Source of the DNA: Nemertoderma westbladi
Taxonomy: Eukaryota > Animalia > Xenacoelomorpha
Assembly (NCBI GenBank): GCA_032718475.1
Contig: JAUCBJ010007828.1
Coordinates: 1-48,955, forward strand
DNA length: 48,955 bases
Reading direction: 5' to 3'
The position numbers and the translations under genes were made by a program. This document shows, piece after piece, positions 1,921-43,157 of this stretch. Under the pieces are notes generated by a model that saw only the letters and a program-made list of their open reading frames with translations, was not told the DNA's origin and did no database searches. The stretch's first letter is position 1. Each line of letters opens with the position of its first letter.

Positions 1921-2996
1921 CTCCCAGATATTCCCATTGGCGATATCTCCTTTGCAGAAGTGAAGGCTGCTGCAAAGAGCATTAAGACCAATCGTGCCAG
2001 TGGAGTAGATGGTGTTCCCCCTGAGGTCTTTAAAATACCTGAGTGTTTAAAGCTCATCTATCCCATCATAGTAGACATGTACCGAACAACAAGAGTCCCA
2101 CAAGAAATGAAAACAAATAAGTTGGTGCCAGTTCTCAAGAAGGGCAACCTAACACTCTATGGTTCTTTTCGGGGAATCTCATTGATCTCAATGCATAAAG
2201 CTATAATTCAAAGCTGCAAAGCTATACAATAGAATTATATTAAATCGCATCAGGGATCCCATTGAGAGACTGCTCCGTGGAAATCAGAAGGGGTTCCGTA
2301 AAGGTCGTGGGACCATGGAACCCATTTTGGCACTTAGAAGGATAATTGAAGAGTTATCAAAAAAGAAACACAGGCATCTGGCTGTTATCTTTGTTGACTT
2401 CTTCAAGGCCTTTGATTCAGTCTCCCGCTCACGTATTTTCAGCATACTTTCATTATATGGGATTCGTGATGAAATTATTGCAGCAATCAGATCAGTATAC
2501 GATGGTTCGACAACATTTGTGTCTACTGTTGATGGTGACACAGAACTATTTATGGGGCGTCCTCCAAGGAGACACACTTGCACCATTCTTGTTCATTATT
2601 GTGGTTGACTATGTTCTACGCATGTCCTTAGCTCATCATAATGATGATGGGGTGATGATAACTCCACCTACTGGCTCCAGAAGTCGAGGAAATCCTGCCA
2701 AGTACCTAACTGATCTAGATTTTGCTGATGACTTAGGAGTACTCTCAGAATCACTAGAGGGAGCCCAACGGCTCCTCAGCTCATTAGAACATGCTGCTTC
2801 TAGTATTGGTCTTTTTATTAACTCCAGAAAGACCAACATTTTGACAGTTAACTTTGAAAGTCCTCAACAAGTCTCTGATCGGATGAGCATAAGCTCAAAG
2901 GATGGTATGCTTGAGCATGTAGACGACTTCTGTTACCTGGGTTCATGGATCCGGAAGTCAGGTGAGGACCTTCGAATACGTAAGGGAAAGGCATGG
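1921..2996 (+). pseudogene. RTE-clade non-LTR retrotransposon (family A), RT 5' part, frameshifted and interrupted by the LTR element
   Basis: Overlapping ORFs with ASGVDGVPPE, KKGNL..FRGISL, FVDFFKAFDSV, GVLQGDTLAPFLF, DLDFADDL, FCYLGS. The frame ..KGKAW continues as AALNMLSRIW after 21126. Confidence 0.9.
2992..2996. repeat. Left 5-bp target-site duplication CATGG of the LTR element
   Basis: CATGG immediately before TGATAAAC (2997) and again at 21122-21126 immediately after ..CGTAACA. Confidence 0.95.
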
Positions 2997-5180
2997 TGAT
3001 AAACAACCGCGACCTCTATACTAACAGCAGAACTGTTGAACAGACCAATACCCGTTAATATCCTTCTGCCAACCTACTGTAATAAGTTCTCGTCTAACCA
3101 ATAAGACACAAAGACTGCTCTACTGTTAAGTAAAGGGGCTCAGGAGCGTGATATTACTAAATTGTAAGGGTTGCTAAATACAAACCGCTACTTACCGTTA
3201 GATGGCGCTAATCTGCCGTCCGCTAATATATTTACTAATTTTACACAACTCCTGCAAAATCGCTTGTTCCTTTCTCTACCGATTGCTCAATAGAGAGCTA
3301 ACTGTTCGAATCTATGAGCCACGCAGGAATAACCAAAACAATAAACCCGATTCGGCTCCCTAAGCTTACTTAAGACGAGTGCGAGAGGCCTTGCACTCAG
3401 AGTATTCTTACGCCTAATTCTATCACTTATTAAAGCACGCTATTACCTACGTCTTTCTAATCGCGAATACTGGGGTTTCTCTAACGTAATGTGTGGATGC
3501 GAGAATATTTAAATATCAAAAATGGTACAGTAATTGTCTCTCGTGGATAGTACCACTCTGGGTCTAAAATTGCCTGCAGCTGGCTTTAGGCCAGCAAATC
3601 ACTAGCGTTTCGTGCGTACCGAATAGTGCGTTCTAGCTGATTGCCCGCTAATGCGAATAACCGCTTAGCGTGAATAGTTTACAGTACTCTAATTATTACT
3701 TTAGCTACTCTCCGCTATGCTGCGTACTAATTCTTAATTTTTTACTAATCAATTACAGTCACAAATATTTAACAGCGTACTAATTACTAAGAGTTCCAGA
3801 ATACGTAATTCTAATTTATCACGCAACAGGTTTCGCTAGTAATAGCCTAAATTGCCGTATTACTTTGACCTAATCAGTAACTAATTATTGTAACTAAGAA
3901 ATAGAAATCAATCAAAAGAAAAAGAGCGCCTATCTAAGCATTCGTAATCATAGGCACACTTCAGTAACACACCAATCAGCATCAGCAATCACAGTTCGCA
4001 ATTATGCAGTTAACTACTGTATAGCCCACAATTATGCGACTCACTATTCGTACTACACGCTCAACGTTCGAAACGTTGTGATACGTGCAGGCCTCTCCCG
4101 GGTACATATAGGACTCCTAACTAACCTGATTCCCGCCCCCCTAATACTAAATAGAGACGAAACCTGGATCATCAGCCCCCTAACTACTGTACCGGCGATT
4201 GGTCTGCGTACCACAGCGTTAACTTCCCGACCGCAACGGTGACCCCACGCCAGCGTTGCTCGCTTTGAATCCTCCGCTCTCCCTTAGTCGCCCAACCCCC
4301 CGATGTGCCCACCGCCCGCTGGCGCCTTAGCCCTCCATTACGCTAATAGCTACCGTAGCGGCGCATGCAAATCACAAAGTCTGACAGTCTCAGGAATCCC
4401 TTGGGATTATTGCGCAGAAAGGAATCACATAGAACCATCAATCAAAGGTAGAAATCATAGTTCGATTGTAATTTGCAGTAATCGAAGGAATTATTGAGAA
4501 ACACAAGCAAAGTAATCGCACTAGCAAATCATTCCAAAAAATTAATCAAATTAGCAAATTGCAGAAAATACGATATCCTAATACAAATTAGAGACAGCTC
4601 AGCAAGTAAATTGTAACAGGGGTGTGTCATGTGAGTGAGAGATTGATGACAGGCTCTACCGGCACACCGCCAATTTATAGGTGATCCGGGTGGGATGATG
4701 CAATAGGGTGACTCAATCGCTCTCCTATTGGCTCTCCAGTCCATGCTAGCATTAGACCAACCTGGAAGCAGTTAATCCAATAAGGAGGCCGGATTGTAGC
4801 CCTATGCCCTCAAATTATTACCATATATGGTAATGGATCACGTCTCTGGCTGCTGAATGGCCAGGACGGCGTCCCTATATGCTAGCCCTATCAAACTAAT
4901 ATCAGCAAGCACAAAATCCAGGGTCCGAGTAAACTCGCTACCCTGGAACTATCTATATATATCCTAATACAAAATTACGTAGGTAGGGCTACATACTATA
5001 CAAAATGAATGGATGCAAATATATGGGCGTTTTAACTTCCTTACCTAAATGTCACCACACTGCGCCTTATCTAAATAATTATACTGCACAACGGACTAAT
5101 ATTACGTACAGTATAACGGACTAATATTGCATACTGCATAATGGACTAATACTGTGGATACAGCGCCATATACCGTAACA
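2997..5180 (-). repeat. 3' LTR (2184 bp)
   Basis: Direct repeat of 18951-21121. Differences seen by eye: an 8-bp and a 5-bp indel near 3030-3080 and one substitution near 3496. Confidence 0.97.
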
Positions 5181-5187
5181 CCGCTCC
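5181..5187 (-). other. Short polypurine tract (GGAGCGG) abutting the 3' LTR
   Basis: Minus strand reads CCCTTGGAGCGG|TGTTACGG. Confidence 0.7.
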
Positions 5188-6076
5188 AAGGGAAATCATA
5201 TAATGTTTCCCTCCAATTGTAGAAGAGTATAAGGTGATGTATACAAAACAAAATAAATTTCTTCCAACCAATCTAAATAACATAATAATTCTACTATTTA
5301 CAAATATTGCCATAGATATTGCATAATGAATTACATACAAATTAAATTTACAAAATATTATCTCTCTCACTGTTTAACGATTATTACATACAAATTAAAT
5401 TTACAAAATATTGTTTCTCGTTCATTCTTACTACATAATGATTACTACATACAAAATCAAATATAAAATTTTGCTAGGGTAAGTGAAAGGAGTAAGCCAA
5501 ACCCGCAGGTTTGTCTCCCCAATCACTTCCTTCGCCTCTTTCATAATATAAATTCAAATAACTCAACTAGTGTATATGAGTCTAGTCGAAAATTTTCAAA
5601 TGCTACAATATACATCAGAGCGACGATGATGTATATATCTAGAGTCTGTCGCCCTGTGCCATAATGTATTATCGACCCGCTCCTGGGTTCTTTGGGCTCG
5701 CTCCTCTCTTTCGCCCCCTTCCCAGATACACTAATCTACCTCTAGTCGACTCCGTTGACGGCGTCCGTGAGGCGTCACTCCCCGGAACCGACGACGACGT
5801 TCCCTGAGCCCCGACAGATTCTCGGCTCGAACTTCTCCCTCGGCCTCGTCCCAATTGTCGCGCTCCCGTGGTCGCTTCCGCCAACTCTTCCTTCTGCAGT
5901 TGCACACGCGCTTTCTCAGACGCCCCCTGCGCCTTGCGCTGCAACCGTTGAGCTTCTATAATTGAATGATAGTGATCGTCCTTGACTTGACGCTTGTCTT
6001 GGACCCCTCCTCCTGGTTCCTTCCGCGAGCCTTGAGCTCCAGCGGTCGTCGCTGTGGTCGCTGCGATCCTTTGTTC

Positions 6077-10131: not shown

Positions 10132-11731
10132 CTAACTCTGTTTTGAGGCAGGAGACAAATTATAATCTCCCGTCTCGATACGTGTCTCCTCTAATAACAC
10201 AATATCTTGGACCGGTCGGTCCAAGGTGTGTAAACCATTAGTTTTACACCTTTTTGGGTGCGGACACTTGCACCTAATTTTCACAGTGACTGTGCGCACT
10301 ATGTTTTGCACGTCTGGGTGTGTGTGCAAGATCACTCCCGTCTCCCAATACTTTCTCTTGACAATGGGTTCGGTTATCAACACGTAATCTCCCCTTTGGA
10401 GACTCCGAACCGTCTTGTACCACTTTGTTCTGGTGGATATGGTGGGAAGATAGAATGAATCGCTGTCTCGCTGCCGACAAACAGTGTAACTTTCCCGCGT
10501 GATGCAACCTCTTGTGTATATCCCATAGAATCGCTCTTTGCAATTCTATCGGGTAACTAGGGATTATCACTGGGAACCGAAACTGTGAGTTTATGTCGAC
10601 AGTCTGGATTCTCGATCTATGACAAATCAAACCCTTATGGATTAATGGACTCCATTTTCTAAGGGGTTTATAGAGAACTGGTCGTTGAGCCGATAATAGA
10701 TGGAATTCTTTTGGGAAGGCACACATTTGATAATGCTTCAAATGCTTTAATTCCGCTTGATCAATCTCATCCTCTGTCAGAGGTTGTTTCAATTTCCGAA
10801 TTCGCTCACTATTGGTGCTCAATGGTTCTCTCGAATGTTTCGAATGTTTTAAACAAAGGTACGAAACGTATCGGCTTAACCACGCAGTTCTTTTACAAAT
10901 TGTCAGCCAAGAGGCAGACGAATTTAGTAATTTGTCATAAACACTGCGTGACTCTAATGCCAGCGACGGTTGTCCGCTAACTAATGGAAGTTTTGAATCC
11001 AAACCCGCAGGTTTGGAAACCAAAGGCTCCATTGTGTCGGTCATTTTCTGTCCGTCACTTACCAATTGTGACTGTCGTCTAGTCTGTAAGGGTGGTTTTA
11101 TGTCATAACTTACCCTTCCTGACCTAGTAGTCACGTAAGTCTGTTGATCTGACAGGTCTCCAGGCCGCTCCAATGACTCTTCAGGCCGCTCCAATGACTC
11201 TTCAGGCCGCTCCAATGACTTAAGTTTGGCTTTAGACTTCGACTTAGAGACTTTCTCCACTTTGACTTCTGCATCTTCAGGCATCGGATTGGTCACTATC
11301 TTTAGTCGCTCTGGCCAATGTTCCTGTGTCCTTGTTAGAAAATCAGGTCCATGCAACCAAAACTCCTGCGACTCTTCCCGACAGAATTCCGCCGGCATTG
11401 CACCTCTCGAAGTTATGTCGGCCGGGTTCAACACTCCCGGACAATGTCTCCATTGTTCCTTCGTCGAAAAATCAACGATCTGAGCGCGTCTATTGGCCAC
11501 AAATGTCTTTAGTGCAATATTGTCGGCCGCAATGTATACTAACACCAAGGATGCGTCCGTCCAATAGAATAAGGTCAATGTCGTGTCTAACTCCTCAATT
11601 ATTTGCTTACTTACCTCGACCGAAACTACAGCCGCCTGTAACTCTGCACGAGGGACAGTCATGTATTTGACCGGCATTGTCTTTGATCTAGAAGTCACAA
11701 AGGCCGTCTCAAATTTGTCCTGACTTACCTC
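10132..11731 (-). pseudogene. pol 3' part: RNase H C-terminus, tether, integrase N-terminal HH motif, then frameshifting deletion of the integrase core, then DUF5641-like C-terminus
   Basis: In frame with gag-pol after the TGA at 11732-11734. IHKRLHHAG..ARQRF jumps at ~10457 to FYLPTISTRTKW..GDYVLI..W..G..VRTVTVK..RPVQDIVLL in another frame. No CxxC or DDE core present. Confidence 0.88.
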
Positions 11732-14700
11732 TCAGCGAAGGTAGGCTACCATACCAAAGCCGGTGTCACTTGCGTCACTGAATAAGTGGAGTTCGAGATC
11801 AGCTGGAAATACCAGCTGATTCGGAAAGTAGGAACGGGGTACGTCTATATTTTTCAATAGATGTAACTCGGCTTCCCACTCTCTCCACTGCTTTGCATGT
11901 ATAGGAGATATTGGTTCGTCCCACTCTATGTCGGACAACCAAATTTTCCTCATGCACGCTCGTGCCTGTAATATAACCGGACTGATAAAGTTCATCGGGT
12001 CAAATAGTCTACTCAATGTCGATAAGCAAATCCTCTTAGTCAAAACTTTGTCTGGGCTACTGGGCTCAAATCTAACTCTTACCTGGAACTTATCCGTATT
12101 CGGATTCCAAGCGAGTCCCAGTACTCGCGCCATGGGGATTGGTTCTACCCCCAATTCTATGTCTCCGCTCCCGCGATCCTTTACCGGGAACGATTCTAAT
12201 AGGGCCTCCGAATTGGTAGTGAACTTGGTCAGAGGAAATCCCCCTGTAGCCAAGCACTCTTGCAGGCCGTGAGCCACTTCTATGGCTTGTTCCGCCGTGT
12301 CCTTGGACACCAATCCGTCGTCCATGTAGAAGTTTCTCAATATAGACTCGATTACTTCTACTGGGTACTTACCAATCTGAGCTGTTGCCGTTTTCTTTAA
12401 AACGAACAGCGTGCCATTTGGACTATCGCGGGCGCCAAATATCCTAACGTACATCTGATATGTAACCACTGGGCCGGATAAGTCTTCATTCTCATACCAG
12501 AGAAAGCGAAGGCTATCCTGGTCTGCCTTACAGGCTCTTACCTGGTGGAACATCGCCTCGATGTCACAAGTAAATGCGAATCGCCGCTGTCTAAAACGCA
12601 ACAGTATTCCTATCAAATAATTATTCAGGTTGGGACCATCCATCAACTCTGAATTCAGGGACATACCTCTATAGACTGCTGCGCAGTCGTTGACTACTCG
12701 GACTTTGTCAGGTTTGTCAGGGTGAGTCACATAGTGGTGTGGAAGGTAATAAGTCTGGTCTGTCACTAAGTCAGGGTCCTCTACCTTCCCAGCAAATCCC
12801 TTGGCGAAATAGTTGTTGATCTGGGCGCAATACTTCTCCCTAATGTCCGGATTCTTCAACAACCGAGCCCTTACTCCATTTAATATTTTCAAGGCTAAGC
12901 TGTAGTTGTTCTCCAACTTAGGTGGTTGTCGACGCCACAACATTCCAACTTCAAAATGTCCAGTCGGTAGTAGACGTACGGTGTCTTCCATCATCTCCAG
13001 CGACCGTTTCTCATCAGTAGACATGGCTAGGTCATATCCACCGGGTTCCATTGCGTCCCTATCCAGCCATTCGACAGTTCTGGCTCCTGTCTCGAGGTCC
13101 TGGCGTATCAATTCCTTCTGTAATTCCTCCTCACTGTATTGGAAAATGTCTAGGTCTCGATATTTAGCCACTTGACCCTCCACTATGTCTGTATAAGTCA
13201 AAACGTTAGTCAGATAAGTAGCGTGGGCCGCTGAACCAGACCCACGGGTCTGATAACAGTAGTCCTCGGGTTCACTATCTGTCCGGTCGTTATGAAGTGG
13301 TTCCGACAACCTAACATTATCGGGAATCAACTCCTCGTCCGACTCGCTAAAGTCACTATAGTGGTCAATGCAGGTTCTCCTAAACTCGTCTATGTCTGGT
13401 GGTTCTACTAACGGTGGTTGAGTTATAGGCTGTAATTCGTCGTATCTGTCCATTGGCTTGTCGCCACCTGTAAACTCATAAGACATGGGTACTCTTGTAT
13501 ACCAACCTAGTATGGTCCTATGGGCATGTGGTCCATTGACATGCGGCTCAGCTGGTCTCGTTTCCCATATTTGGTGTGCGATCAGCTGTTCTGCACCAAT
13601 CAACATAGAAACATTCCTATAACCTACCTGGTGTCTGGGTATCCTGAGCTTGTCAAAATACTCCTGTGCTATGGGACTCATCGGCGGCACCTTACCTAAT
13701 TGCCTGCCGAATCCCTTCATAGCTAGACACTTAAATCCGTCCAATGGCAAAGCTTTCCGTTCTTGTCGAGTGTGTTGGTCTCTCGGAAGTAGGGAATCTA
13801 GTTCTACCGAAATTCTGTGTCCCTTGAGGTCTCCTACCCCGTGCATAGACTTCAACTCTATTTGGATCTCCTCAGCGTTCTGGAAGCTAGAAACAGCTCT
13901 CGCCACTTCCTCGTCGATATACGATAATGTGGACGCAGTGTCCAACATCACATATATTCGTTTTGATCCCTTATCTCCAGTGAGTTTCACCGGAATCACG
14001 CTAAATATTTCCGATGTGGCCGATGATAAATACGTCCGCGCGCTGGTCGATGAACTATCCGCGGTGAAACCTTGGCAGGTCACTTCTCTTGCGCTCGACT
14101 CGCCATCTTCGTCCGACGAACCTGGTTGGTAACCATCGTCCTGGATGCCAGTGTACGTATTCCTTCTTATCGATACGGGTTCTTTGCTCCCCTTCCTGTG
14201 AGGATTTCGCTGTAAGTAACGGTCCGTTGGGGTATGGAAATCCGCATGTAGCAACTTGTGATGTAGTCTGCCGCATTCCATGCATCCGTCCTTGCTGTTC
14301 GGGCACTGCCGCCGTACATGACCTGGCGCAAGACATGCCCAACAGGTGTCCAACGTCCGCACTTGAACTCTTCTCTGTTCCGAATTTAATTCTTTGAACC
14401 GTCTGCAACTATCTAACTTATGGTCGTCAGATCTTACCTCCTTTAGTAAACAGTATTGGCAACCTACAAATCCATCCGGCAACTCCTGTTGCTTTAACCT
14501 AGGTCTATCTAACCGCTCACCTGACCATACTCGCGAGTCTGATCTAAAGGCTGGGGTACTCGAATTATATCTGTCTACTGAGTTATAAGTCACAGTGGTC
14601 CTGTCGTCGTCAAAACTTACCATAGACTTACCGGTAACAGGTTTAGACTCCCTCATATTCTCTTCTGAGAAGTTTGATTTCATCTCTGCTACTGCGTCTG

Positions 14701-17700
14701 TGGCTATCATGTCATGAATATGCTGAAGTGTCAATACTTTACCTTGGCCCTCCAACTTATTCTCTAATTTGCGCCATTTCTGTCTGTAACGCATGTTTAG
14801 ACGTCTTATTACGCTTTTCAAAACTTCGGCGTGATCACCATGATGAGGTAGATTCACCGTCCTCAAGATGTCCAATGCGTTCGAAATAGCGTTCGCTAAG
14901 TTCAACAGCTCTAACGGAGTTGTAATCCTTCCGCCCTTACCCAAGTCTTCTACTATCGACTGCGCCATCTTGGTTTTATTCCCGTAGATGTCACTAAGCG
15001 TCTTCATCGCTAACTCAAATGCTCTTTCATTGCCGACGAAGTTATCAGCAATGGCTCTAGGTTCTCGATGGAGCATCTGAAGCAAATAGTTGAACTTCTC
15101 GTTGGGAGTAAAGGTGCTGTTGGTTAGCTGCTCGTCGACATAGGTTCTAAAGGTCCTCCAGTGCTTGTGGTTGCCCATAAACTTCTGGGGTTGTTGCGTC
15201 GGCAGTCCTTGCCTAGCAGCAAACTTACCTATGTCCCTAAGGGTTGCGTCGTTCTGGGTTAACAAATGGTTTAGTTCCGCAGGGTTGTTAAGTCTGGTCC
15301 TTTCCCGGTGGTTCCAACTTACCTGCTCCGCGTCGGTCCTTCTTTCCTTATAGTTTCGGGACTTCTGACGTCTCATTTCTTCCTCTTCATCGCTTGACTC
15401 GGTGTCAGTCCTTAGCGCTCGCGATGGTTTGCGCGCCGAGGCCCTGATCCAAGCATCCTCAATAAATTTCTCTGCCGAATTTTCGAAATTGGGATTATGG
15501 ATATTCGGGACAGGCGTCCTTACCTGAGGTCTATGTGGTATAGTCTCCTCCGATATGCGTACTCGTTGACTAGGCTGGACTTTATCTAACTCAGGCCTGC
15601 TGGGATTAGAATTACTTCTTACCTGGGCTGCTTCCTTTAACCGTAGGTTGCTAAGCATGTCCGTTATAGGTTGGATGTGCGGCGATATAGCTTGCGCTAA
15701 ACTAGCACTTAACTCATCCCTCGTAATAAATTCCTGGCTAGGGTTCTGTTGTATAGTCGGCTCTATCTGAGTAATCCGCTGTCTCTCATATGATCCCTCT
15801 TCCGGTTTAACCCGGAAGTTCTCCGTCGAACTGGGTCGGCGCTCCGTCCGCGTATTCCAAACCCGCGGGTTCGGTTCGCCAAATACTCGGCCCGTCGGAG
15901 TTTCTTCTCTAAATTCTCCGTTGTCACGTTCGGTGTACAGTGGTGCGGCGTTCCGATGACGTAGATCCTGGGCGATAGGTGAAGCACTAATACCAACTGG
16001 CGTGCGATATGTAGAGAACGGTTTAACGATCCGTGTACTCGTAATAGCTGGACCGGGTATAGGAATTCTGGTCGTCGTCGACTCGCGTATAGCCGGAGTT
16101 CTCGCTTCCTGTTCGGCCTTCTGCAGTGCGAACAGTTCTCGCAACTCAGTCCCTACACTCGCCCCACATTCTTCGAGCATTCGCATCCCCTTCTCGGCGA
16201 TTTCGTTCGCCTTCCTAGTCCGTTCTTCGCTCTCTAAACTTAATCTCGCACTTTCCAACTGCGCCAGTTTACGTTCTTCTTCTTCCCTCGCTCGTCTCGC
16301 TGCGCCCTCTTCTTCCACTCGCGACCTCTCTTCATACAATGCGCGTCTTCTCTTCTCGATCTCGAGTTCGCGTTCCTTGCGTCCGCGTTCGAGTTGAAGC
16401 TCGCGCTCCTTCTGTTCACGATCGAGTTTCTTGCGCTCGCGTTCGGCTTGGAGTTCGCGTTTCTTCGCTTCCTGTTCGCGTTCGAGTTGGAGTTCGCGTT
16501 TCTTCGCTTCCCGCTCGCATTCAAGTTGGAGTTCGCGTTCTCTCTGTTCGCGTTCGAGTTCCTCGCACTCGCGCTCGGCTTGGAGTTCGCGTTCCCTTTG
16601 CTCGCGTTCCGCTCGCTCGCGCTTACTTATCTCTTCCAACTCTCGTAACTCTGCGTCCAACTTACGTGTGCGCTCCCGTTCCCGCTCGGCTTCCTTCCGT
16701 GCTTCCTGTGCACGCAAAACTTCCGCCTGCTGTTCGTCTAGTCGGCGTCTTCTCTCCTCCGCCGAGTTGTGAGAAACAAGGGATCTAGCACATATTACCT
16801 TACCTCGCGCGTGACTAACCTGGGAATCGCCGCTGTCTCTAGATGCATCGTCGGGTGGAGTCAACGTCCTCTGTTGAATGTTCTCCGTCGTCGGTAGCAC
16901 CTGGCCTGGTACCACCACTCCATTCTGCATCAGCCAGCTAGTAACTTCCCTCTGATAACGGCGCTCTTCCTTATCTTGGATCTCTTCCCGCTCCACTAAG
17001 TCTCTTAACTCTGCGTCACTCACCTGAGTCGCCTGCGCTTGTGATGCCCATAGCAGCCAGTTCTCTGTCCTAACTCGTCGGAATCGCTCCGATAACTCGC
17101 GGTGCTCCAACAAGGCTGCTAAAACCCTGTCGTAAATCCTCGTCGCCACGTCGCTCGACTGAGACTCTACTGCCTTCTTCGCTAGGACTGCAAGCTCCTC
17201 CGTCTGCTTGAATAACGCTGAGTTATATCCTCTTCTAATCTCTGCTAACTCTACCCTCCCGATGTTCGCTGAGTCAGCTAACATCTTCCTTACCTTGTCC
17301 GCCGTCCGAGTTATATGTCCGGCGTGCGCGCGAAGTTTCTTCTTTATCGCAGTGTCGAACTCTCTATCACTTACCTGACTTACACTCGGTGGACTTGAAG
17401 GATTATTTCGGGAACTACGGGTACTCCTTACAGCCGTCGGGACCACGGCACTTACCATACCCACAGGTCTGGAAACCGGGCTCCGGGCTCTCGCTTCTGC
17501 TACACTACCCTCCCTATCACTCACCTCTGTCCGGGCTGCTGTGCAGTCCTTCCTTACAGTAGCGGTAGGGGATCCTAATACTATTACTTGAGGTTGTTGT
17601 TCTTCCTCACTAGTCACTGTCTCGTCCTCCTGTTCACTTACGTCAGCGTCGCTCGCTGCGTCGTCATAGTCGGCATTGTCATCAACAGTAATGTTTACGC

Positions 17701-17770
17701 TATCGTCAGTCGGCGGTCCAGCCGCCGTCTCGTAGCTGTCCTCTAGTGCCTCTTTGTCTGAGACACTCAT
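11732..17770 (-). CDS. BEL/Pao Gag-protease-RT-RNase H polyprotein ending at a premature TGA inside RNase H
   Basis: First ATG at 17770. Coiled-coil repeats, DUF1759-like Gag (EKFNYLLQML), CWACLAPGHVRRQC and CMECGRLHHKLLH, protease LDTAS (~13931-13945), RT YMDD (~12317-12328), RNase H FSDAS (~11769-11783). Confidence 0.93.
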   Translation of the reverse strand: MSVSDKEALEDSYETAAGPPTDDSVNITVDDNADYDDAASDADVSEQEDETVTSEEEQQPQVIVLGSPTATVRKDCTAARTEVSDREGSVAEARARSPVSRPVGMVSAVVPTAVRSTRSSRNNPSSPPSVSQVSDREFDTAIKKKLRAHAGHITRTADKVRKMLADSANIGRVELAEIRRGYNSALFKQTEELAVLAKKAVESQSSDVATRIYDRVLAALLEHRELSERFRRVRTENWLLWASQAQATQVSDAELRDLVEREEIQDKEERRYQREVTSWLMQNGVVVPGQVLPTTENIQQRTLTPPDDASRDSGDSQVSHARGKVICARSLVSHNSAEERRRRLDEQQAEVLRAQEARKEAERERERTRKLDAELRELEEISKRERAEREQRERELQAERECEELEREQRERELQLECEREAKKRELQLEREQEAKKRELQAERERKKLDREQKERELQLERGRKERELEIEKRRRALYEERSRVEEEGAARRAREEEERKLAQLESARLSLESEERTRKANEIAEKGMRMLEECGASVGTELRELFALQKAEQEARTPAIRESTTTRIPIPGPAITSTRIVKPFSTYRTPVGISASPIAQDLRHRNAAPLYTERDNGEFREETPTGRVFGEPNPRVWNTRTERRPSSTENFRVKPEEGSYERQRITQIEPTIQQNPSQEFITRDELSASLAQAISPHIQPITDMLSNLRLKEAAQVRSNSNPSRPELDKVQPSQRVRISEETIPHRPQVRTPVPNIHNPNFENSAEKFIEDAWIRASARKPSRALRTDTESSDEEEEMRRQKSRNYKERRTDAEQVSWNHRERTRLNNPAELNHLLTQNDATLRDIGKFAARQGLPTQQPQKFMGNHKHWRTFRTYVDEQLTNSTFTPNEKFNYLLQMLHREPRAIADNFVGNERAFELAMKTLSDIYGNKTKMAQSIVEDLGKGGRITTPLELLNLANAISNALDILRTVNLPHHGDHAEVLKSVIRRLNMRYRQKWRKLENKLEGQGKVLTLQHIHDMIATDAVAEMKSNFSEENMRESKPVTGKSMVSFDDDRTTVTYNSVDRYNSSTPAFRSDSRVWSGERLDRPRLKQQELPDGFVGCQYCLLKEVRSDDHKLDSCRRFKELNSEQRRVQVRTLDTCWACLAPGHVRRQCPNSKDGCMECGRLHHKLLHADFHTPTDRYLQRNPHRKGSKEPVSIRRNTYTGIQDDGYQPGSSDEDGESSAREVTCQGFTADSSSTSARTYLSSATSEIFSVIPVKLTGDKGSKRIYVMLDTASTLSYIDEEVARAVSSFQNAEEIQIELKSMHGVGDLKGHRISVELDSLLPRDQHTRQERKALPLDGFKCLAMKGFGRQLGKVPPMSPIAQEYFDKLRIPRHQVGYRNVSMLIGAEQLIAHQIWETRPAEPHVNGPHAHRTILGWYTRVPMSYEFTGGDKPMDRYDELQPITQPPLVEPPDIDEFRRTCIDHYSDFSESDEELIPDNVRLSEPLHNDRTDSEPEDYCYQTRGSGSAAHATYLTNVLTYTDIVEGQVAKYRDLDIFQYSEEELQKELIRQDLETGARTVEWLDRDAMEPGGYDLAMSTDEKRSLEMMEDTVRLLPTGHFEVGMLWRRQPPKLENNYSLALKILNGVRARLLKNPDIREKYCAQINNYFAKGFAGKVEDPDLVTDQTYYLPHHYVTHPDKPDKVRVVNDCAAVYRGMSLNSELMDGPNLNNYLIGILLRFRQRRFAFTCDIEAMFHQVRACKADQDSLRFLWYENEDLSGPVVTYQMYVRIFGARDSPNGTLFVLKKTATAQIGKYPVEVIESILRNFYMDDGLVSKDTAEQAIEVAHGLQECLATGGFPLTKFTTNSEALLESFPVKDRGSGDIELGVEPIPMARVLGLAWNPNTDKFQVRVRFEPSSPDKVLTKRICLSTLSRLFDPMNFISPVILQARACMRKIWLSDIEWDEPISPIHAKQWREWEAELHLLKNIDVPRSYFPNQLVFPADLELHLFSDASDTGFGMVAYLR

Positions 17771-18940
17771 AGTCCAAATAATATTTGCCTTCCGGCAAAA
17801 ATCTCGCAAAAGTTCGAGATATAATTATAATTTAACCGAAATACGGTCAAATTATTTGTCAAATAATCAGTTGGTCCAAATGTCAAAATAAATTCGCAAT
17901 GCAATATTGTGAATTTAATGGGGTATATAGTTATAGCAAATACTAGCACAATATTTAAACAAAAATATTATTATATAGCTACTATATAGCATTAAATACC
18001 GGTATAGCACAAAATAACTTTGAATCTAATACAAAATATTCAAAATAGACTTGCCACCCGAATATTTCTAATTTTATATATAGCTCTAATCAACGCAATT
18101 TTAATTTCAAATATTATATGTATCCACTAGCGCGTGGCTACATCTTCGGGTTGCGACTCTCTCTAACTCTCTCTCTAACTTGAGCGATTCAAAACCATGG
18201 CCGGCTAAACCTAAATATCCTAACTAATAAATTGAGTTCAGCTTCGCAGTTAAACAACCGGTAATTTTTTACTGCTTCCACAAACACACTGGCGCCAACA
18301 GAACAACTAACCTTGTTTGCTGTGAGATTCCACGTCCGCGTCCAAAGATTCAGGCCCTTCGCTGATTGCAAACCGAACCCGCAGACCCACACGAACCCCA
18401 AACTCAGAAGTCCCGTCTTGCCATGTATCTCCAGATGGTATAAAATAACTAAGCGGTTACCTAACATACCGGTACAAAACTCTAGAATTTTACGAATAAT
18501 TTTGACCGAAACTGAATTCTCGCAAACCTAGCTAATAATTTTCAAAAAACTTACTAATTACAGTTTGCCCTAAGGCCTAAGGAACTGCTGTATTCGCAAT
18601 TAGCAAAAACGCACTACCGTACATCCACTGTATGCAGTACAGTAAGTAAAACAGTACACCAACCTAACAGCCTAATGATACTGTGTGTGGTACGGCAAAC
18701 AAATGTCCTTCTACCGTACGCAGTAACAGCAATCAGCCTAATGTACTACTGTACTAGTGTACGCAGCCAGTGAATACAGTAATATAAACTAACAGCCTAA
18801 AGGAATATACTCAATGTTCTACCGTACGCTAGCCTATAGCCTACAGCAGACGATCACGTGCTCCAATTTATTGCCTAATACTATGATACTACTATCAGCC
18901 TAAGAATACTCTATTGACCGCTGCAAGCAACAGCCAATAA

Positions 18941-18950
18941 CACGTATCAC
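18941..18950 (-). other. Non-canonical primer-binding site GTGATACGTG (candidate self-priming PBS)
   Basis: Immediately follows the 5' LTR end (..TTTATCA), lacks the TGG of a tRNA-CCA PBS, and is the exact complement of 20019-20028 within the LTR. Confidence 0.6.
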
Positions 18951-21121
18951 TGATAAACAACCGCGACCTCTATACTAACAGCAGAACAGACCAATACCCG
19001 TTAATATCCTTCTGCCAACCTAATAAGTTCTCGTCTAACCAATAAGACACAAAGACTGCTCTACTGTTAAGTAAAGGGGCTCAGGAGCGTGATATTACTA
19101 AATTGTAAGGGTTGCTAAATACAAACCGCTACTTACCGTTAGATGGCGCTAATCTGCCGTCCGCTAATATATTTACTAATTTTACACAACTCCTGCAAAA
19201 TCGCTTGTTCCTTTCTCTACCGATTGCTCAATAGAGAGCTAACTGTTCGAATCTATGAGCCACGCAGGAATAACCAAAACAATAAACCCGATTCGGCTCC
19301 CTAAGCTTACTTAAGACGAGTGCGAGAGGCCTTGCACTCAGAGTATTCTTACGCCTAATTCTATCACTTATTAAAGCACGCTATTACCTACGTCTTTCTA
19401 ATCGCGAATACTGGGGTTTCTCTAACGTAATGTGTGAATGCGAGAATATTTAAATATCAAAAATGGTACAGTAATTGTCTCTCGTGGATAGTACCACTCT
19501 GGGTCTAAAATTGCCTGCAGCTGGCTTTAGGCCAGCAAATCACTAGCGTTTCGTGCGTACCGAATAGTGCGTTCTAGCTGATTGCCCGCTAATGCGAATA
19601 ACCGCTTAGCGTGAATAGTTTACAGTACTCTAATTATTACTTTAGCTACTCTCCGCTATGCTGCGTACTAATTCTTAATTTTTTACTAATCAATTACAGT
19701 CACAAATATTTAACAGCGTACTAATTACTAAGAGTTCCAGAATACGTAATTCTAATTTATCACGCAACAGGTTTCGCTAGTAATAGCCTAAATTGCCGTA
19801 TTACTTTGACCTAATCAGTAACTAATTATTGTAACTAAGAAATAGAAATCAATCAAAAGAAAAAGAGCGCCTATCTAAGCATTCGTAATCATAGGCACAC
19901 TTCAGTAACACACCAATCAGCATCAGCAATCACAGTTCGCAATTATGCAGTTAACTACTGTATAGCCCACAATTATGCGACTCACTATTCGTACTACACG
20001 CTCAACGTTCGAAACGTTGTGATACGTGCAGGCCTCTCCCGGGTACATATAGGACTCCTAACTAACCTGATTCCCGCCCCCCTAATACTAAATAGAGACG
20101 AAACCTGGATCATCAGCCCCCTAACTACTGTACCGGCGATTGGTCTGCGTACCACAGCGTTAACTTCCCGACCGCAACGGTGACCCCACGCCAGCGTTGC
20201 TCGCTTTGAATCCTCCGCTCTCCCTTAGTCGCCCAACCCCCCGATGTGCCCACCGCCCGCTGGCGCCTTAGCCCTCCATTACGCTAATAGCTACCGTAGC
20301 GGCGCATGCAAATCACAAAGTCTGACAGTCTCAGGAATCCCTTGGGATTATTGCGCAGAAAGGAATCACATAGAACCATCAATCAAAGGTAGAAATCATA
20401 GTTCGATTGTAATTTGCAGTAATCGAAGGAATTATTGAGAAACACAAGCAAAGTAATCGCACTAGCAAATCATTCCAAAAAATTAATCAAATTAGCAAAT
20501 TGCAGAAAATACGATATCCTAATACAAATTAGAGACAGCTCAGCAAGTAAATTGTAACAGGGGTGTGTCATGTGAGTGAGAGATTGATGACAGGCTCTAC
20601 CGGCACACCGCCAATTTATAGGTGATCCGGGTGGGATGATGCAATAGGGTGACTCAATCGCTCTCCTATTGGCTCTCCAGTCCATGCTAGCATTAGACCA
20701 ACCTGGAAGCAGTTAATCCAATAAGGAGGCCGGATTGTAGCCCTATGCCCTCAAATTATTACCATATATGGTAATGGATCACGTCTCTGGCTGCTGAATG
20801 GCCAGGACGGCGTCCCTATATGCTAGCCCTATCAAACTAATATCAGCAAGCACAAAATCCAGGGTCCGAGTAAACTCGCTACCCTGGAACTATCTATATA
20901 TATCCTAATACAAAATTACGTAGGTAGGGCTACATACTATACAAAATGAATGGATGCAAATATATGGGCGTTTTAACTTCCTTACCTAAATGTCACCACA
21001 CTGCGCCTTATCTAAATAATTATACTGCACAACGGACTAATATTACGTACAGTATAACGGACTAATATTGCATACTGCATAATGGACTAATACTGTGGAT
21101 ACAGCGCCATATACCGTAACA
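18951..21121 (-). repeat. 5' LTR (2171 bp)
   Basis: Direct repeat of 2997-5180; minus-strand termini TGTTA...TATCA. Confidence 0.97.
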
Positions 21122-21668
21122 CATGGGCAGCCTTGAATATGCTTTCCAGGATTTGGAAGTCACCGATAATTAATCGGAAACTTAAGGTCCGATTATTTAG
21201 AGCAGCAGTAGTTCCAGTACTCCTCTATGGGAGTCCATGCTGGGCTCTAACTGCTGAGGACACCAAATCTCTGGATGGCACATTCACAAGAATGCTACGC
21301 CGGGTTCATTGTGTCAAGTACAATGCACACATCTCCAACCAGACACTATATAACATTGGAGGTGTCTCATTGGTTCCCCCAGGCTTGACACTAGAACAAA
21401 ATCGCCTCCGCTTTGCAGGACATTGCTTTCGCCGTGAGGACCAGCCAGTGCATAATCTTGTACTTTGGCAGCCTCATGGAGTGAATAAGCATGGTGGACA
21501 GCCAATGACTTTCTTAAGACGCATCTTAAAGGACACTGGCCTTGAAGATGCGGATGATCTAGCAAATGTCATGGGTGATAGGGAGTTGTGGCGGCACAAT
21601 TTTGTCGACAAGCCGGCACAGCATTCTTAAAAATGCAGCTGCAATGCAGCATGCCGATACTAGTAGTA
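21122..21668 (+). pseudogene. Right TSD (21122-21126) and 3' end of RTE family A LINE with short (TAG)n tail
   Basis: KLKVRLFRAAVVPVLLYGS, RLRFAGHCFR, stop at 21630, 3' UTR ending TACTAGTAGTA. Confidence 0.9.
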
Positions 21669-24600
21669 CTACTACTACTAGGTCGAGCGAACTCGGACAG
21701 TGGAAATGAGATCCTTCCAGGCTTCCCGATTCTCCATAGTTGTCGCAATTTCGTTTCTCCCAAGTTCAGTATCCCTTTCAAGTTGATCTATATATGTTAT
21801 GGCAGGTCGTCCACGACTACGCTTTCCATGAGTTGGTTGCCAGAGAAGTAGATCTGGTATGACCTCGTCTTTACTTCGCCAGCAGTGCCCACTGAATCTT
21901 AATCTGCGTTCACGGAGGGTGGTTGATACAGGTGGTATTGTACCATAAAGCTCGGCGTTTGTCATGTGTTGTCTCCAGCTGATGTTTAGGGCTGCCCTTA
22001 GTAGTCTTGTGTAGCAACCATCAATTCGTTGTTCAAGTGATTTAGTCAGTGTCCAGGTCTCACCCCCGTATAAAAATACACTTTCCACTGTGGCTCGAAA
22101 GAACTTGGTCTTCAGGTGCCTGGAGAGATCTGATTTCCAGATGGTATCCATTTTTGATAGAGCTACCCAAGCCTTTGCTTTCCTAACTTCTATGTCCTTT
22201 TTGCTACTCTCTATCCATGATCCAAGGTACTGGAAGTCATCGACCTGCCTTAGTTGATTATTATCAATGGTTGTCAAGTTTCCATCAACATTAAAGGTCA
22301 TGAATTCGGTCTTGGTAGCATTTATATGCAATCCAACCTCCTTAGCAGCCCTCTCCACTTTATTTAGTAGAAGCTGTGCATCTGCTAGCGTATTAGAGAG
22401 CATGGCGATGTCATCCGCAAAGTCGGTGTCTGTGACTGTAGTTGCCGGATATCTACTACTTCTGCGTTCTTGAAGTGTGAATCCCAGATCTTCACCCTTT
22501 GTGGCCGTCCTCATTGCGTAATCCAGCACAATTACAAATAGTAATGGTGCTAATGTGTCACCTTGCAGTACGCCAGCCAGGATTGAGAAAAACTCAGTTT
22601 CACCATCTGGTGAGAGTACCTGCGCTTCTGTGTCACAATATAGCAATCCAATGCCAGCAACAATTACTTCTGGTATTCCATAAGCTCTTAGGATTTCAAG
22701 CATTTTACCTCTATGGATGGAATCGAATGCCTTCTTGAAGTCCACAAAGGTCATGACTGCGGGGAGATTCTTTGACTTGATTCCTTCAATCAGTCTCCGT
22801 AGTGCAAGTATCTGAGCTATTGTTGATCTACTTGGTCGAAATCCGTTTTGGCTCTTACGCAGTAGTTTCTCTATGTGAGGCCTAATCCTATATAGAATCA
22901 TTTTATTGTATATTTTGGCAGCTACCACAAGCAGACAGATCCCACGATAGTTTGTTGGCATGCCGAGGTCTCCTTTCTTGGGGAGAGGCTTTAGTTGACC
23001 TTTAGTCCAAATTGGTGGTGGCTTTTCCCCTTTTAACATCCGGTTGCAAACATTCAATAATGGTCTATTTAGCACTCCGGTTTTCCATACCTCCGCTGGG
23101 ATTTCATCTAATCCACTCGCTTTATTATTGGACATGCTTTTAATGCTTCTTTGGAGTTCGGCAGGTGTGAAGTCCCCTGTTTCTATAGGTAGTGTCTTGT
23201 CATATATTTTCCTTGTAGGGCTGACCTCGATGTTTGGTGGCTGCCCAAGCAAGTTGCTGAAGTGATTTTTCCACTTCCCAACACGTTCTTCAGGACTATC
23301 GGCTTTGAGGCGCCCCTTTGCACAACTTTCCCGACCAGATACCTCATTTACAGTTCGCCAGGTAAGTCTTGATTGTTGCTGTATGTGAGCAGTTGTAATT
23401 GCTTCAGTTTTATCCTGTAAGTACTTTTCCTGGCTGATGTTGTAGGCCAATTTAAGATCGTCCTTAGCTTTCTCAACCTTGTTAATGTTTTCGGTTGTTG
23501 GTTGTTCGGTTTTAACTTTGTAGGCTATCTTAAGATCTTCTCTCTTACAAGTAACCTCAGAGTTTTGCCATGGCACATACTGTTTTCGTTTAGGTTTCTG
23601 GGGGATATGCCTCTTAGCTGATTCCTTGTGGGCTGTTATTATATTCTGGTATATTGAATCGGTGGATTGGTCTTCATCCATTGACTGAAGTGCTTCAAAG
23701 CGGTTTTGAACTTCTACTGTATAAGCATCCTTTACAGCATTGTCAGTTCTGAGTTTCTCCCAGTCATAGTTGATTTGCTTGCTTGTCCTGGGTTTGCTGG
23801 CTCTCAAACTGAGTCTGATCTCTGCAGTCACAATTATGTGGTCCGAAGCAATTAGGTTGAACGAGCTGTATGCCTCGCAGTTGATCATGCTATTTCTCCA
23901 CTTTTTGTTTATAAGGATGTAATCCAGTTGTGCTTTGGTTCCATTAGGGTATTGAAAGGTCCATAGCTTCCCCTTACTCTTTTCGAATGTGTTGTTTGTT
24001 GGTATCAATTCACATTCTTCCATTAGGTCTAAGAGTAAGTACCCATTTCTGTTAGAACTGGTGTTATAGGTGTAACCCTTGATGTCTTCTGGGCCAATTT
24101 GCGCATTCAGGTCACCAGCAATGACTTTAACATTGTGTTTCGGGATGTCCTTAATAAGTCCAGTCAGTTCCTCATAAAACTTGACTGCTTGTTCTGGCTC
24201 TGATGCATTGGTTGGACTGTAGCAACATATAACTGTTGTCTTGGGATTCCCATCAAATGTCATTTCCAATGTCATTGTACTTCATGGCAGTGTCTTCATG
24301 ACAAATCCGATGTTCTTGGATGCAGATGATGTCGATGTTATATTCCATTGCCAGAGCGACCATGTCACCCTGTTTGCTCTGTGCTTTCAGCGTGCGTGCG
24401 TTCATTGTAGCAATCTTTAGTGTCTTTTTACATTTCAACAGGTTGGTTCTTCTTTCTTCTCTGTCTTCTGTTCCAGTAGCCAATTTATCGACCCCAGCCT
24501 GGTGTACCACTGAGGGACGCGGTCCTTGTTGACCCGGGCGACGACCGAGCCGGTATTTCTCCTGGAGGGTTCTCATACTCATATCTTTCAGTTGTGGGGG

Positions 24601-25592: not shown

Positions 25593-25627
25593 CTACTACT
25601 ACTAGGTCGAGCGAACTCGGACAAAAA
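25593..25627 (-). mobile_element. Extremely 5'-truncated family B LINE insertion (~35 bp)
   Basis: Matches 21669-21699; 13-bp TSD ATACTAGAGATTA at 25580-25592 and 25628-25640. Confidence 0.88.
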
Positions 25628-25634
25628 ATACTAG

Positions 25635-26400
25635 AGATTAATAGTTTAAAACGATCGAGTTTGAAAGGTTGGGTTAATAAATATTGTGGTAGTTAGTTAA
25701 AAACGAATTATTAGTATGTACATTAGTTAAAAGATAATTATCAGATAAAAACCAGTAAAAGGCAAAGTGAAAATATTAAGAAATATGCAAAGATTGAGTT
25801 GACATCATTATAAGATTAATTTAATAAAGATAAATAAACTATTAAAGATTAATAGTTTAAAACGATCGAGTTTGAAAGGTTGGGTTAATAAATATTGTGG
25901 TAGTTAGTTAAAAACGAATTATTAGTATGTACATTAGTTAAAAGATAATTATCAGATAAAAACCAGTAAAAGGCAAAGTGAAAATATTAAGAAATATGCA
26001 AAGATTGAGTTGACATCATTATAAGATTAATTTAATAAAGATAAATAAACTATTAAAGATTAATAGTTTAAAACGATCGAGTTTTAAAGGTTGGGTTAAT
26101 ACATATTGGGGTAGTTATAGTTAAAAACGAATATCAGTACATTACGTAAAAGATAATTATCAGATAAAAACCAGAAAAGGGCAAAGTGAGAGTATTTAAA
26201 AATATGCAAAGATTGAGTTGACACAATCGAGTTTTAAAGGTCGGGTTAATACATATTCGTCATCTTGAAGGTGACGTATTGTGATAGTTAGTTAAAAAAC
26301 GAATAATTATCAGTACGTTAGTTAAAAAAAAGATAATTATCAGGAATTAAAACAGAAAAGTGCAAAGTGAACTTATTTAAAAATATGCAAAGATTGAGTA
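25635..26400. repeat. AT-rich tandem repeat, ~210-bp unit, ~3.5 copies, decaying rightwards
   Basis: AGATTAATAGTTTAAAACGATCGAG recurs at ~25635, 25846 and 26057; degenerate partial fourth copy. Confidence 0.9.
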
Positions 26401-27022
26401 AAAGATAAGATGAGGTAGATAAAAAGTTTGTGTAGTGCTTGTGTATGACTCAGTCAGTCAGTGACTGTACAGCTGTAGGCTAAGTAAATACTGAATTATG
26501 CTTGATGCCAGCGCCAGGCAGCCAGGATGCTGTACTGTCTGACTGCTGGACTGTGTGATGCTTAACCACCTGTCTGCCTGTACAAGTGTACTATGCTGCT
26601 ATAGCCTATGTACAGATGTATGCTGGTATGTATGTATAGGTCAGTAGGCAGGCCCGTATCGTGCGGGGGGGCTTTGGGGGCACTGCCCCCTCAGAGAAGT
26701 CCCACTGCCCCCCCCCAGACATGTATTGTTCACTCGTCTTGTTCAGAATTAACTAATAATAATATTGTTGGTAATCAATATTATTGGATTCACATACTCC
26801 TGCCCATTGACCTGACCTGACTCCCCACCATTCCATTTGGTCCAATTCTATAACTACATGACATTAATATACCCACCTACTGTACCTGTAATTACTAAAC
26901 ATACTCGAAAGCGCTCGGTTCTCTCATTGGCTACCAGGGTGGAGGGGTTGTTTGTTGTTGACCCATTGTCTATTTGCTTGTAGTTTGGGAGCCAGCTTGC
27001 AGCTAAAAGGCTTGGCGCTGAG

Positions 27023-30010: not shown

Positions 30011-30814
30011 CCCTTGTGCTGTCTTTGAGTTTGAGGTCATTTTTGACCCATCATAGATTTAAACTTACTCAATTTTATCACACATGGATATTCCAACTCA
30101 GTTCGCAAACCAGATGTCATCAAATGTCAAATGGGCCCAAACTTAGATAGATACCAAAATTTTGAATTGGGGATGACATGAAATATTCCAAAATGCACAT
30201 GGCCAGTTCCCGCCCTTGGCGCAAGTGAGTCATATTCCCCATTTTTGTGATGATCAACTTCTAGTATTCCTACTGCATTGATATTATGCTCATTTAGAAC
30301 CGCAATGACCGATTTAGTTGTTGTAGACACCTTCAAAACAAGCATAGAGCTGTAGAGCGAATAGTGTTTGTCAAGGTATTTGTCAATATCGCATCAAGGC
30401 GCTAATTTTGACTTGTGCCGGACTTCACATTATCTGCAATATCTGCAAAACTATTCGCTCTATTGTTGTTTTGAAGGTGTCTACACCAACTAAATCTGTC
30501 ATTGCGGTTCTATTGAGCATAAATATAAATGCAGTAGGAATAATAGAAGTTGATCATCACAAAAATGGGGAATATGACTCACTTGCGCCAAGGGCGGGAA
30601 CTGGCCATCTGCCTGTGGGAATATTTCCTGTCATCCCCAAATGAAAATTTTGGTTCCGGTATCTATCGAAGTTTGGGGTCATTTTATGACATCTGATGTG
30701 CAAACTGAGTTTAAATTCGACAATTCAACAAGTTTTTTTGGACCACCCCAACCCTCTCATTTACCTGAGGTCAAAATTGACCTCAAAGGAATCATCTGTT
30801 TGAGAAACGAAGGG
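30011..30814. mobile_element. piggyBac-like MITE with long internal inverted repeat
   Basis: TTAA|CCCTT ... AAGGG|TTAA; subterminal palindromes GAGGTCA(N4)TGACC; arms ~30130-30345 and ~30465-30690 are inverted copies. Confidence 0.8.
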
Positions 30815-37540: not shown

Positions 37541-37701
37541 CCAGTACTCATTTAGCTACCATTTAAGGATGCAAGGCAGAGATGCCTCGCTAAACCCTTC
37601 AAAACATTCGTGCCGAAAAGAAAACTACCTTGGCCCCATGCCGGGGTTGAACCCACAACCTCTGAGAGATGTGAATTGAATATAACCACTACACCAAGGT
37701 G
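37541..37701 (-). mobile_element. tRNA-derived SINE, copy 1
   Basis: Minus strand A box TGGTGTAGTGG and B box GGTTCAACCC, followed by a body shared with 40461-40624. Confidence 0.75.
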
Positions 37702-40460: not shown

Positions 40461-40624
40461 CCAGTACTCATTTAGCTACCGCTTAGGGATGCAAGGCAGA
40501 GATGCGCTCTGGCTGGTCCCTTTAAAGCATTCGTGCCGAAACGAAAACTGCCCTGGTCCATGTGAGGATCGAACCCACGACCTACGGGAGATGTGAATTT
40601 AATGCAACCGCTACACCAAGGTGG
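40461..40624 (-). mobile_element. tRNA-derived SINE, copy 2
   Basis: A box TGGTGTAGCGG, B box GGTTCGATCC; homologous to 37541-37701. Confidence 0.75.
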
Positions 40625-41933: not shown

Positions 41934-43157
41934 ATGATGGCGGCGACAGAGTTCGAAGAAATGACTATTGCGCAGAGAATCAAACTGTACGAGACTACAG
42001 CGCAACGAGGTTCTACTCCGGCCAGCGCGAAGGAACGCGTCCCCCCCTTGGGATCGGACGACCCCGCATCGACCCCGGGGGACTTCCGGACGCCCAGGGC
42101 CAGGATGCCATCCTCCTCGTCCGAGGGGGACTATCGAACCCCCAGGGGGCACAGCAAGTCCGCTTCGTCGGAGGGGGAAATATTCTCCCCGTTCACGCCG
42201 CCTAACAAACAAACTCCTTCCGGCTTCTACAGAGCAAATTATTCCAACTCCACCAGCACCGCGGCCAATCACAACTCAACGTTGCCAGGTAACAAGATTT
42301 CTTCCACCAATGGGCGCGCCGCTGGTGATCACGAATCCAGATATCCATCCTCCCCCGGTTATAAACGTGTTTCCGATGTAACCACGGTGTTTCACTCGCG
42401 ACATTCGTCCGACAATGTCTCCACACCCAACCATTCCGATTCATTCTCTACTCCCATCGAAGGCTCCCGCTCATCCGCTCCCGGGGGCGGCTCCCCGGCT
42501 TCCGCCGTAGACGAAACGCCACCATTCTCCAACGCGCTCCAATTCTTCGCTAAACTCGATTCCCCGTCCACCGAGGAGGAGCGGCCGGTGAGCGTGCGTC
42601 GCCCGAGCGGCGGTTTGAACTGGAGCGAACGGCGTCTCTCGTCGTCCGGGGAATCGCGACGCGATTCCGCACGGCCGTCGGACCCGTCGGCTACACGCGT
42701 CGGACGCCAACCCACGATCGGCTCCGTTCTCCTCGCAACCTCCTTCGCCGATTCTCCCCACCGCGGTGCCGCTAGTCGTGGCGAGGATTCCCGTTGGCGT
42801 TCCTACGAGAACCGCTCGGGAGGAAGTCGCGCCACCTATATAACCGACTCGTCGGACAACCGTCGGACTGAGAGTACCGACAGTCGGGTAAAAGGTTCCG
42901 ACGCTCCTCTACTAGGCTCTACTAGTCGGACCGGGACAGTAGAGACGGACACGATGGGTGACACGATATCGCAGTACCTTCCCCCCGATATCCGAGCCGC
43001 CGTAACGCGAGCCACGCAGTCCCCAGTTCAACACGCCGCTCCGCATTCTTCTTCTACGGCCACTGGCTCTGGCGTCGTCGATAACGCGGTGACGTACAGC
43101 GGTGCTACAGCGGTCAATGCGGTGCAATCAACGGAAGTTGGGGTGTACCACGTGCGG
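41934..43157 (+). CDS. Probable host coding exon, S/P/R/T-rich intrinsically disordered protein; product unknown
   Basis: 408 open codons in a sharply GC-rich block within AT-rich DNA; starts ATG ATG GCG; ends at CGG|GTGAGT (phase-0 donor consensus). No recognisable domain. Confidence 0.55.

Follow-up and report, generated by a model that had tools for sequence, protein, structure and literature searches.

The window, by which we mean the whole 48,955-nt stretch of DNA analysed, contains a minus-strand LTR retrotransposon of 18.1 kb, with its putative priming site at the 5' end of the element (Table 1). A single substitution and two indels (5 and 8 nt) separate the two LTRs, and this near-identity points to a recent insertion. 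Empty-site flanks are present among the loose ends of contigs of the same family, and relatives of the element have a PPT tract at a comparable position with a G-rich ending. The gag-pol frame closes at a premature TGA within RNase H (11734-11732, minus strand), and about 230 aa of the integrase core are absent near 10445-10524 (minus strand), together with a change of frame, so that this copy is broken. That such lesions occur despite near-identical LTRs could reflect damage after insertion, mobilisation in trans or an assembly error. Downstream of pol is an extra ORF to which no Pfam family could be assigned and which is not env-like by Pfam. A first homologue search with this ORF returned nothing, and a further search returned eight weak relatives (E 2e-11 to 3e-4), one of them with zf-CCHC matches; judging from its sequence, the product is possibly a nucleic-acid-binding accessory protein.

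Table 1. Features of the retrotransposon in the window
Feature	Position	Strand	Details
5' LTR	18951..21121	-	2171 bp, TG...CA; from LTR-LTR alignment
3' LTR	2997..5180	-	2184 bp, TG...CA; from LTR-LTR alignment
Target-site duplication, 5 bp	21122..21126, other copy 2992..2996	-	From LTR alignment
Primer-binding-site position	18940..18950	-	10-11 nt right after the LTR CA; starts GT, no TGG
Predicted self-primer segment, 5' LTR	20019..20029	-	Contiguous, intron-free; 10 Watson-Crick pairs and 1 G-U
Predicted self-primer segment, 3' LTR	4078..4088	-	
TATAAA, candidate promoter	20615..20620	-	Only sense-strand TATAAA of the LTR; inferred start near 20588
Weak TATA-like hexamer	20046..20051	-	Not kept in the family
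7-bp hairpin	20002..20019	-	Present in this copy, variable in the family
gag-pol frame	11732..17824	-	DUF1759, zinc knuckles, protease, RT, start of RNase H
Remainder of pol	10165..11731	-	RNase H, N-terminal part of integrase
Extra ORF, 1123 aa	6077..9448	-	After pol; three CCHC-like knuckles near the C end
Short purine-rich tract	5181..5190	-	PPT position, precedes the 3' LTR

The detection of DUF1759 and Peptidase_A17 in gag-pol marks the element as BEL/Pao. PF05380 was found in 120/120 of its RT-RNase H relatives (the best 120 of 409), which are 35-43% identical to it and all BEL/Pao; the named ones among them come from corals, fish, molluscs, an urchin, a tunicate and a ribbon worm, and the aquatic host range given for the Sinbad/Suzu BEL/Pao lineages in passages of two earlier papers fits these matches (PMC8220671, PMC3118150). 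Further BEL/Pao traits of the element are the TG...CA LTRs, the target duplication and the PR-RT-RH-IN order, with the integrase core deleted in this copy. The ICTV profile of the Belpaoviridae describes LTRs of 0.2-1.2 kb, genomes of 4.2-10 kb and an 18-nt site for tRNA-Arg or tRNA-Gly (PMC8742986). The window element resembles this family in DUF1759, Peptidase_A17, domain order, LTR termini and metazoan relatives, whereas its missing tRNA site, its 2.17-kb LTRs, its length and its extra ORF depart from the profile. It is BEL/Pao by protein and stands outside the profile's description of priming. In run X1 the summed contig depth of the family is 20,000-270,000, which is not equal to copy number, and the contigs include hundreds of variants; the family looks abundant in the host. 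No relative of the element was found among viral contigs.

The element has inserted into a repeat of very high depth (2346-2996, 21122-24281) that contains LINE-type RT fragments (RVT_1, DUF6451), and a second RT ORF occupies 21678-24281 (minus strand). Elsewhere the window has a 211-bp tandem repeat (25625-26404), a MITE-like 500-bp inverted-repeat element (30153-30654), two copies of a 66-nt repeat with a SINE-like look (37636-37701 and 40558-40623) and, at 43127-47650, a G-rich array of tandem units spaced 35-40 nt apart, in which the minus strand has long frames free of stops.

The site after the 5' LTR and its counterpart

The first-pass annotation of this DNA, which was made from the sequence alone, had read the position right after the 5' LTR as lacking the usual TGG, and the aligned LTR boundaries confirm that TGG is absent within 5 nt of the LTR end. 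It had also reported that the post-LTR 10-mer (18950->18941) has an exact complement inside the LTR in the register needed for priming. This held up as well: there is one exact complement per LTR (20028->20019; 4087->4078), at register 0, lengthened to an 11-bp duplex by G-U pairing at 20029. Within the LTR this segment is the top partner of the site, at -17.8 kcal/mol, with the runner-up at -9.6 (a gap of 8 kcal/mol). A register-0 match of the 10-mer arose in 3/5000 dinucleotide shuffles of the LTR and a match at any offset from 0 to 3 in 25/5000, and as an empirical control LTR complements exist for 30/13,759 of the element's internal 10-mers. Pairing upstream of the core extends no further than chance (p=0.68), and candidate junctions in the LTR of the window element gave no pairing of more than 6 nt with the site. 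The LTR itself is atypical, with 1069 nt from the primer segment to the LTR end and neither AATAAA nor ATTAAA on its sense strand.

A site of this kind is known from Tf1/Tf2/Tj1 and the Tf1/sushi group of Ty3/gypsy chromoviruses, which, according to passages of three papers, have no tRNA site and carry 10-11 nt after the LTR complementary to their own LTR RNA (PMC7175516, PMC4600332, PMC10085805). The window element is like them in the complementarity between the site and its own LTR, and unlike them in being BEL/Pao by its domains rather than a Ty3/gypsy chromovirus. It would work like Tf1 self-priming without being a Tf1/sushi member. Predicted self-primers are also described in plants, where passages of PMC6317226 give a complement of at least 10 bp situated 0-5 bp past the 5' LTR for Tcn1 (gypsy) and TAR/Houba/Osr-1 (copia); the elements discussed here were called by the same criterion.

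Variation within the element's own family was read from Logan contigs of four runs from three samples, of which X1-X3 are deep and represent two samples, while X4 barely covers the 10-mer. A further run, X5, which may be RNA, leaves the 10-mer uncovered. Nine of the ten positions of the 10-mer have zero variants at 1%. At the remaining one, 20021, a change from C to U on the RNA accounts for 44-61% of depth and keeps a G-U pair with the site of this copy. The stretch 20022-20041 is invariant across the family contigs. One X4 contig (depth 31) joins 18974 to about 20588 and so skips 1.6 kb of LTR including the 10-mer, with 32 other letters between the joined ends; it breaks exactly at the AG 18976-18975, behind a pyrimidine tract, and a GT is present at 20558. 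This contig could come from a relative with a short LTR or represent a spliced form.

Split complements in related elements

Relatives were gathered with a profile of 58 proteins, and the best 80 of 522 confirmed metagenome loci were examined. TGG is absent after the LTR in 12/13 loci whose LTR end is set by both LTRs, the remaining one being L052. The pattern emerged when ten LTRs were read: an intron that starts at a GT donor and ends at an AG acceptor rich in pyrimidines interrupts the complement of the post-LTR site. When LTR ends were set independently, and with rules chosen after viewing ten of those LTRs, 11 of the 13 non-TGG elements (window element included) have a complement of at least 10 bp, across a junction in 8 and contiguous in 3. 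The corresponding controls gave 2/178 for cross-family pairs and 13/3430 for the elements' own downstream windows. L052, a BEL/Pao relative whose TGG site (L052:406-425) is ordinary and whose LTR measures 171 bp, served as a negative control, and neither a junction nor a self-complement of at least 10 bp was found in it.

The other 67 loci were searched out of sample, with the LTR end ignored as a criterion, and 15 of the 37 testable loci matched, leaving 22 without a match. All 15 best matches lie 0-4 nt past ACA/ATA and start with GT (14) or AT (1), and 12 of these loci, from 11 families, were new. Among cross pairs in the same search, some match was seen in 111/1332, with 35 after an ACA/ATA end and many within families. 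A relaxed search of the 43 remaining loci then matched 14 and left 29 without a match: junction matches came from L023, L048, L061, L063, L064 and L079, contiguous ones from L066, L051, L057, L075 and L045, and the matches in L028, L041 and L080 were judged to be chance. For loci without a match, many contigs may be missing the needed part of the LTR. In L033, whose LTR is complete, no true match was found; a match under a looser rule, 624 nt from the acceptor and starting AA, was rejected and left out of the count that follows.

Under a looser acceptor rule, a junction complement of 10-15 bp occurs in 29/80 loci, representing 22 families, and it is present only when the GT-AG intron is removed. 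The introns measure 67-426 nt, exon 1 contributes 4-10 nt and exon 2 contributes 4-7 nt of the complement, and the acceptor is 54-365 nt from the site. AATAAA or ATTAAA follows within 400 nt 3' of the acceptor in 23 of the 29 loci, though some of these signals may lie outside the LTR, which suggests that the primer lies in R. Pairing extended upstream above the level of shuffles in only 1/22 families. Only contiguous complements are described for Tcn1 and TAR/Houba/Osr-1, unlike the split form here, and a blastn screen of the kind used for those elements would miss split complements.

The 22 junction families are 45-84% identical in RT (median 55) and have 19 different first-10-mers, in which position 2 alone is invariant; the site starts with GT in 19 of them. 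When partners were swapped between families, at least 10 bp of pairing remained in 9/462 combinations, 8 of the 9 being between sister families. The first-pass annotation had suggested that a BEL/Pao lineage primes itself without a tRNA and had pointed to covariation between the post-LTR 10-mer and the LTR 10-mer as a check. That covariation exists across families, and the proposal is strongly supported, as relatives without TGG keep the pairing with different letters.

Comparison of L066 with its sister L068 shows the loss of exactly the 168-nt GT-AG intron from both LTRs, with an identical site. At the DNA level, this loss is evidence for splicing of the intron at its predicted ends, and for a spliced form that has been copied and is able to replicate. 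A contiguous complement is also found in L025. L065 shows both states, the acceptor being present in one LTR while the other is joined, but these LTRs, at 88% identity, could derive from two subfamilies.

Two further observations concern the ends and arrangement of these elements. When both LTR ends are compared, the 0-4-nt spacer after CA tends to mirror the spacer on the PPT side before TG, as in L025 (AGA/TCT) and L010 (AA/TT), with no spacer in L024 and the window element; L050 and L029 also belong to this set, and the mirroring is weaker in L005, L059 and L039. L062 and L063 are on one 18.5-kb contig that consists of three head-to-tail 6138-bp units of one BEL/Pao element, representing either a tandem array or an assembled circle.

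Transcription start and alternative readings

From these data we consider it very probable that the window element primes itself in one geometry or another. The geometry is where readings differ most. In Tf1 the mRNA's first 11 nt serve as a contiguous primer held in a three-duplex pretzel, and passages of PMC7175516 place the RNase H cut between bases 11 and 12. The first-pass annotation had proposed a comparable start for the window element, with a TATA-like TATATG at 20051 placed so that the first 10 nt of the transcript would be the primer, and with a 7-bp hairpin beginning at the 3' end of the 10-mer. Both motifs exist in this copy, but neither is a family feature: position 20049 differs in 65-81% of depth in runs X1-X3, and the hairpin region shows numerous substitutions and 9-nt deletions. 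The only TATAAA, at 20620, is 590 nt upstream of the self-primer segment. On motifs, the evidence tends to count against the annotation's geometry in this element.

An exact Tf1 arrangement, with a start at 20028-20029 and the first 10-11 nt as primer, nevertheless explains the same complement data and is the alternative that survives best, though we regard it as doubtful. The window duplex has no upstream extension, as this arrangement would have it, and the invariant stretch 20022-20041 could be a TATA-less core promoter. L006/L018, among the nearest relatives by RT score, has a perfect TATA 36 nt before the donor, which fits a Tf1-like start, with a spliced RNA that would begin with a 12-nt primer. 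Against this, at 20051 there is a weak hexamer that lies close (-23) and is altered in most of the family depth, and the sole TATAAA is far upstream. Among the junction loci, a perfect TATA is found in 8/29 (6 families), and in 5 of these 6 families it is 125-207 nt upstream of the donor. The two side duplexes of the pretzel were not found either: 1 and 2 of 18 families reached p<=0.07, and the window element gave p=0.84 and 0.10, in a coarse comparison of 30 shuffles.

A less probable reading, which we consider unlikely, accepts the duplex as real and assigns it to regulation or packaging, for example as a splicing-dependent switch, with something else acting as the primer. Long-range pairings in the leader do occur in retroviruses, and the priming role proposed here is deduced from sequence. 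However, in all families the pairing begins 0-4 nt past the LTR CA, the position needed for the 3' end of a primer, no alternative primer site is present, and the spacer mirrors that of the PPT side in several families.

Still harder to sustain is priming by the 5' half of tRNA-Asp, cut in the anticodon loop, with the LTR match as secondary or a chance event; this seems very unlikely to us. Half-tRNA priming is known in Ty1/copia lineages, according to passages of PMC6317226, and the anticodon arm makes 6+3 pairs with the window site. The first-pass annotation had named such a fragment as an imperfectly pairing yet real competitor. Imperfect pairing, with one mismatch, is what we see, but it is not the better match: it reaches -10.4 kcal/mol in 16/16 tRNA-Asp genes, which were called in 60 of 80 loci from viral contigs and are not host genes, compared to -15.9 kcal/mol for the self 11-mer. 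The site also varies among families and tracks the LTR each time, and one tRNA cannot explain 19 different sites. Finally, that the window 10-mer matches by chance while its relatives use the mechanism is hardly credible: the 2.17-kb LTR, the shuffles with a match at some offset from 0 to 3 and the unsure position of the element in the tree leave some room for it, but the match is at register 0, starts with GT like 19/22 families and is conserved within the family.

A proposed primer joined by splicing

Returning to self-priming from within a longer transcript, the best explanation in our view, held with a confidence somewhat above even, is that the window element is an intron-less member of this BEL/Pao group in which a piece of its own LTR RNA, internal to the transcript, would prime the minus strand. 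Its place among the relatives is less clear from the RT. In a quick tree (with L069 dropped) it forms a long branch (1.94) of unsure position, its mean RT identity is 41% to the junction families vs 40% to the TGG element L052, and its best scores among the loci include the L006/L008 family. Its GT start and zero spacer are common to many relatives, and with its contiguous complement they make it read as an intron-less form: it lacks the split complement of most families and resembles the intron-less L025, L066, L051, L057 and L075. No intron-bearing version of the window 10-mer was seen among the listed joints and loose ends of the four runs, so that intron loss in this element rests on analogy; by that analogy, it is probably an intron-less form of the splice-built group.

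For the group as a whole, we think it fairly likely that in a widespread aquatic BEL/Pao lineage the host spliceosome builds the primer as an exon-exon junction of the LTR, which would leave priming to spliced RNA alone, and that the window element is a high-copy, intron-less derivative with its primer 1.07 kb from the site. The transcript of the window element would probably start upstream of the segment, possibly from the candidate TATAAA at 20620, and an upstream start would make the primer an internal segment of a longer capped RNA. This differs from Tf1 in that most families have an intron within the complement, which is probably inside the transcript. The host spliceosome would join the two halves of the primer, and the joined segment would anneal to the site after the LTR. 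A cut directly 3' of the segment, probably made by the element's RNase H by analogy with Tf1, would free a 3'-OH, from which RT would copy the LTR as far as the cut (about 1,070 nt in the window element and 50-360 nt in relatives) before jumping to the 3' repeat. The primer could be supplied in cis, or in trans by a short LTR transcript. The intron would be kept only where the 3' LTR copy of the template stays unspliced; where it is spliced, the resulting LTR would lack the intron and already contain the complete primer, a state seen in L066 and probably in the window element. The intron might be kept because it restricts occupancy of the site to the spliced copy nearest the cap.

Neither self-priming in BEL/Pao nor a spliced primer was the subject of any paper we found in searches of the open full-text literature. 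The BEL-type element Cer7 of C. elegans reportedly has been proposed to use a primer of its own, said to be a tRNA-like cloverleaf that pairs with a TGG-type site rather than an LTR exon junction. In the main texts of PMC3118150 and PMC554778, the terms "PBS" and "tRNA" do not appear.

If the proposed mechanism is correct, self-priming would gain a third LTR superfamily in BEL/Pao, which is officially tRNA-primed (PMC8742986). A primer assembled by splicing has no precedent in the literature searched, and it would tie reverse transcription to host splicing and explain why an LTR that passes through RNA during copying can hold on to an intron. It also accounts for the failure of such elements at the PBS filters of annotation pipelines, and these elements would escape tRNA-fragment control at the primer site.
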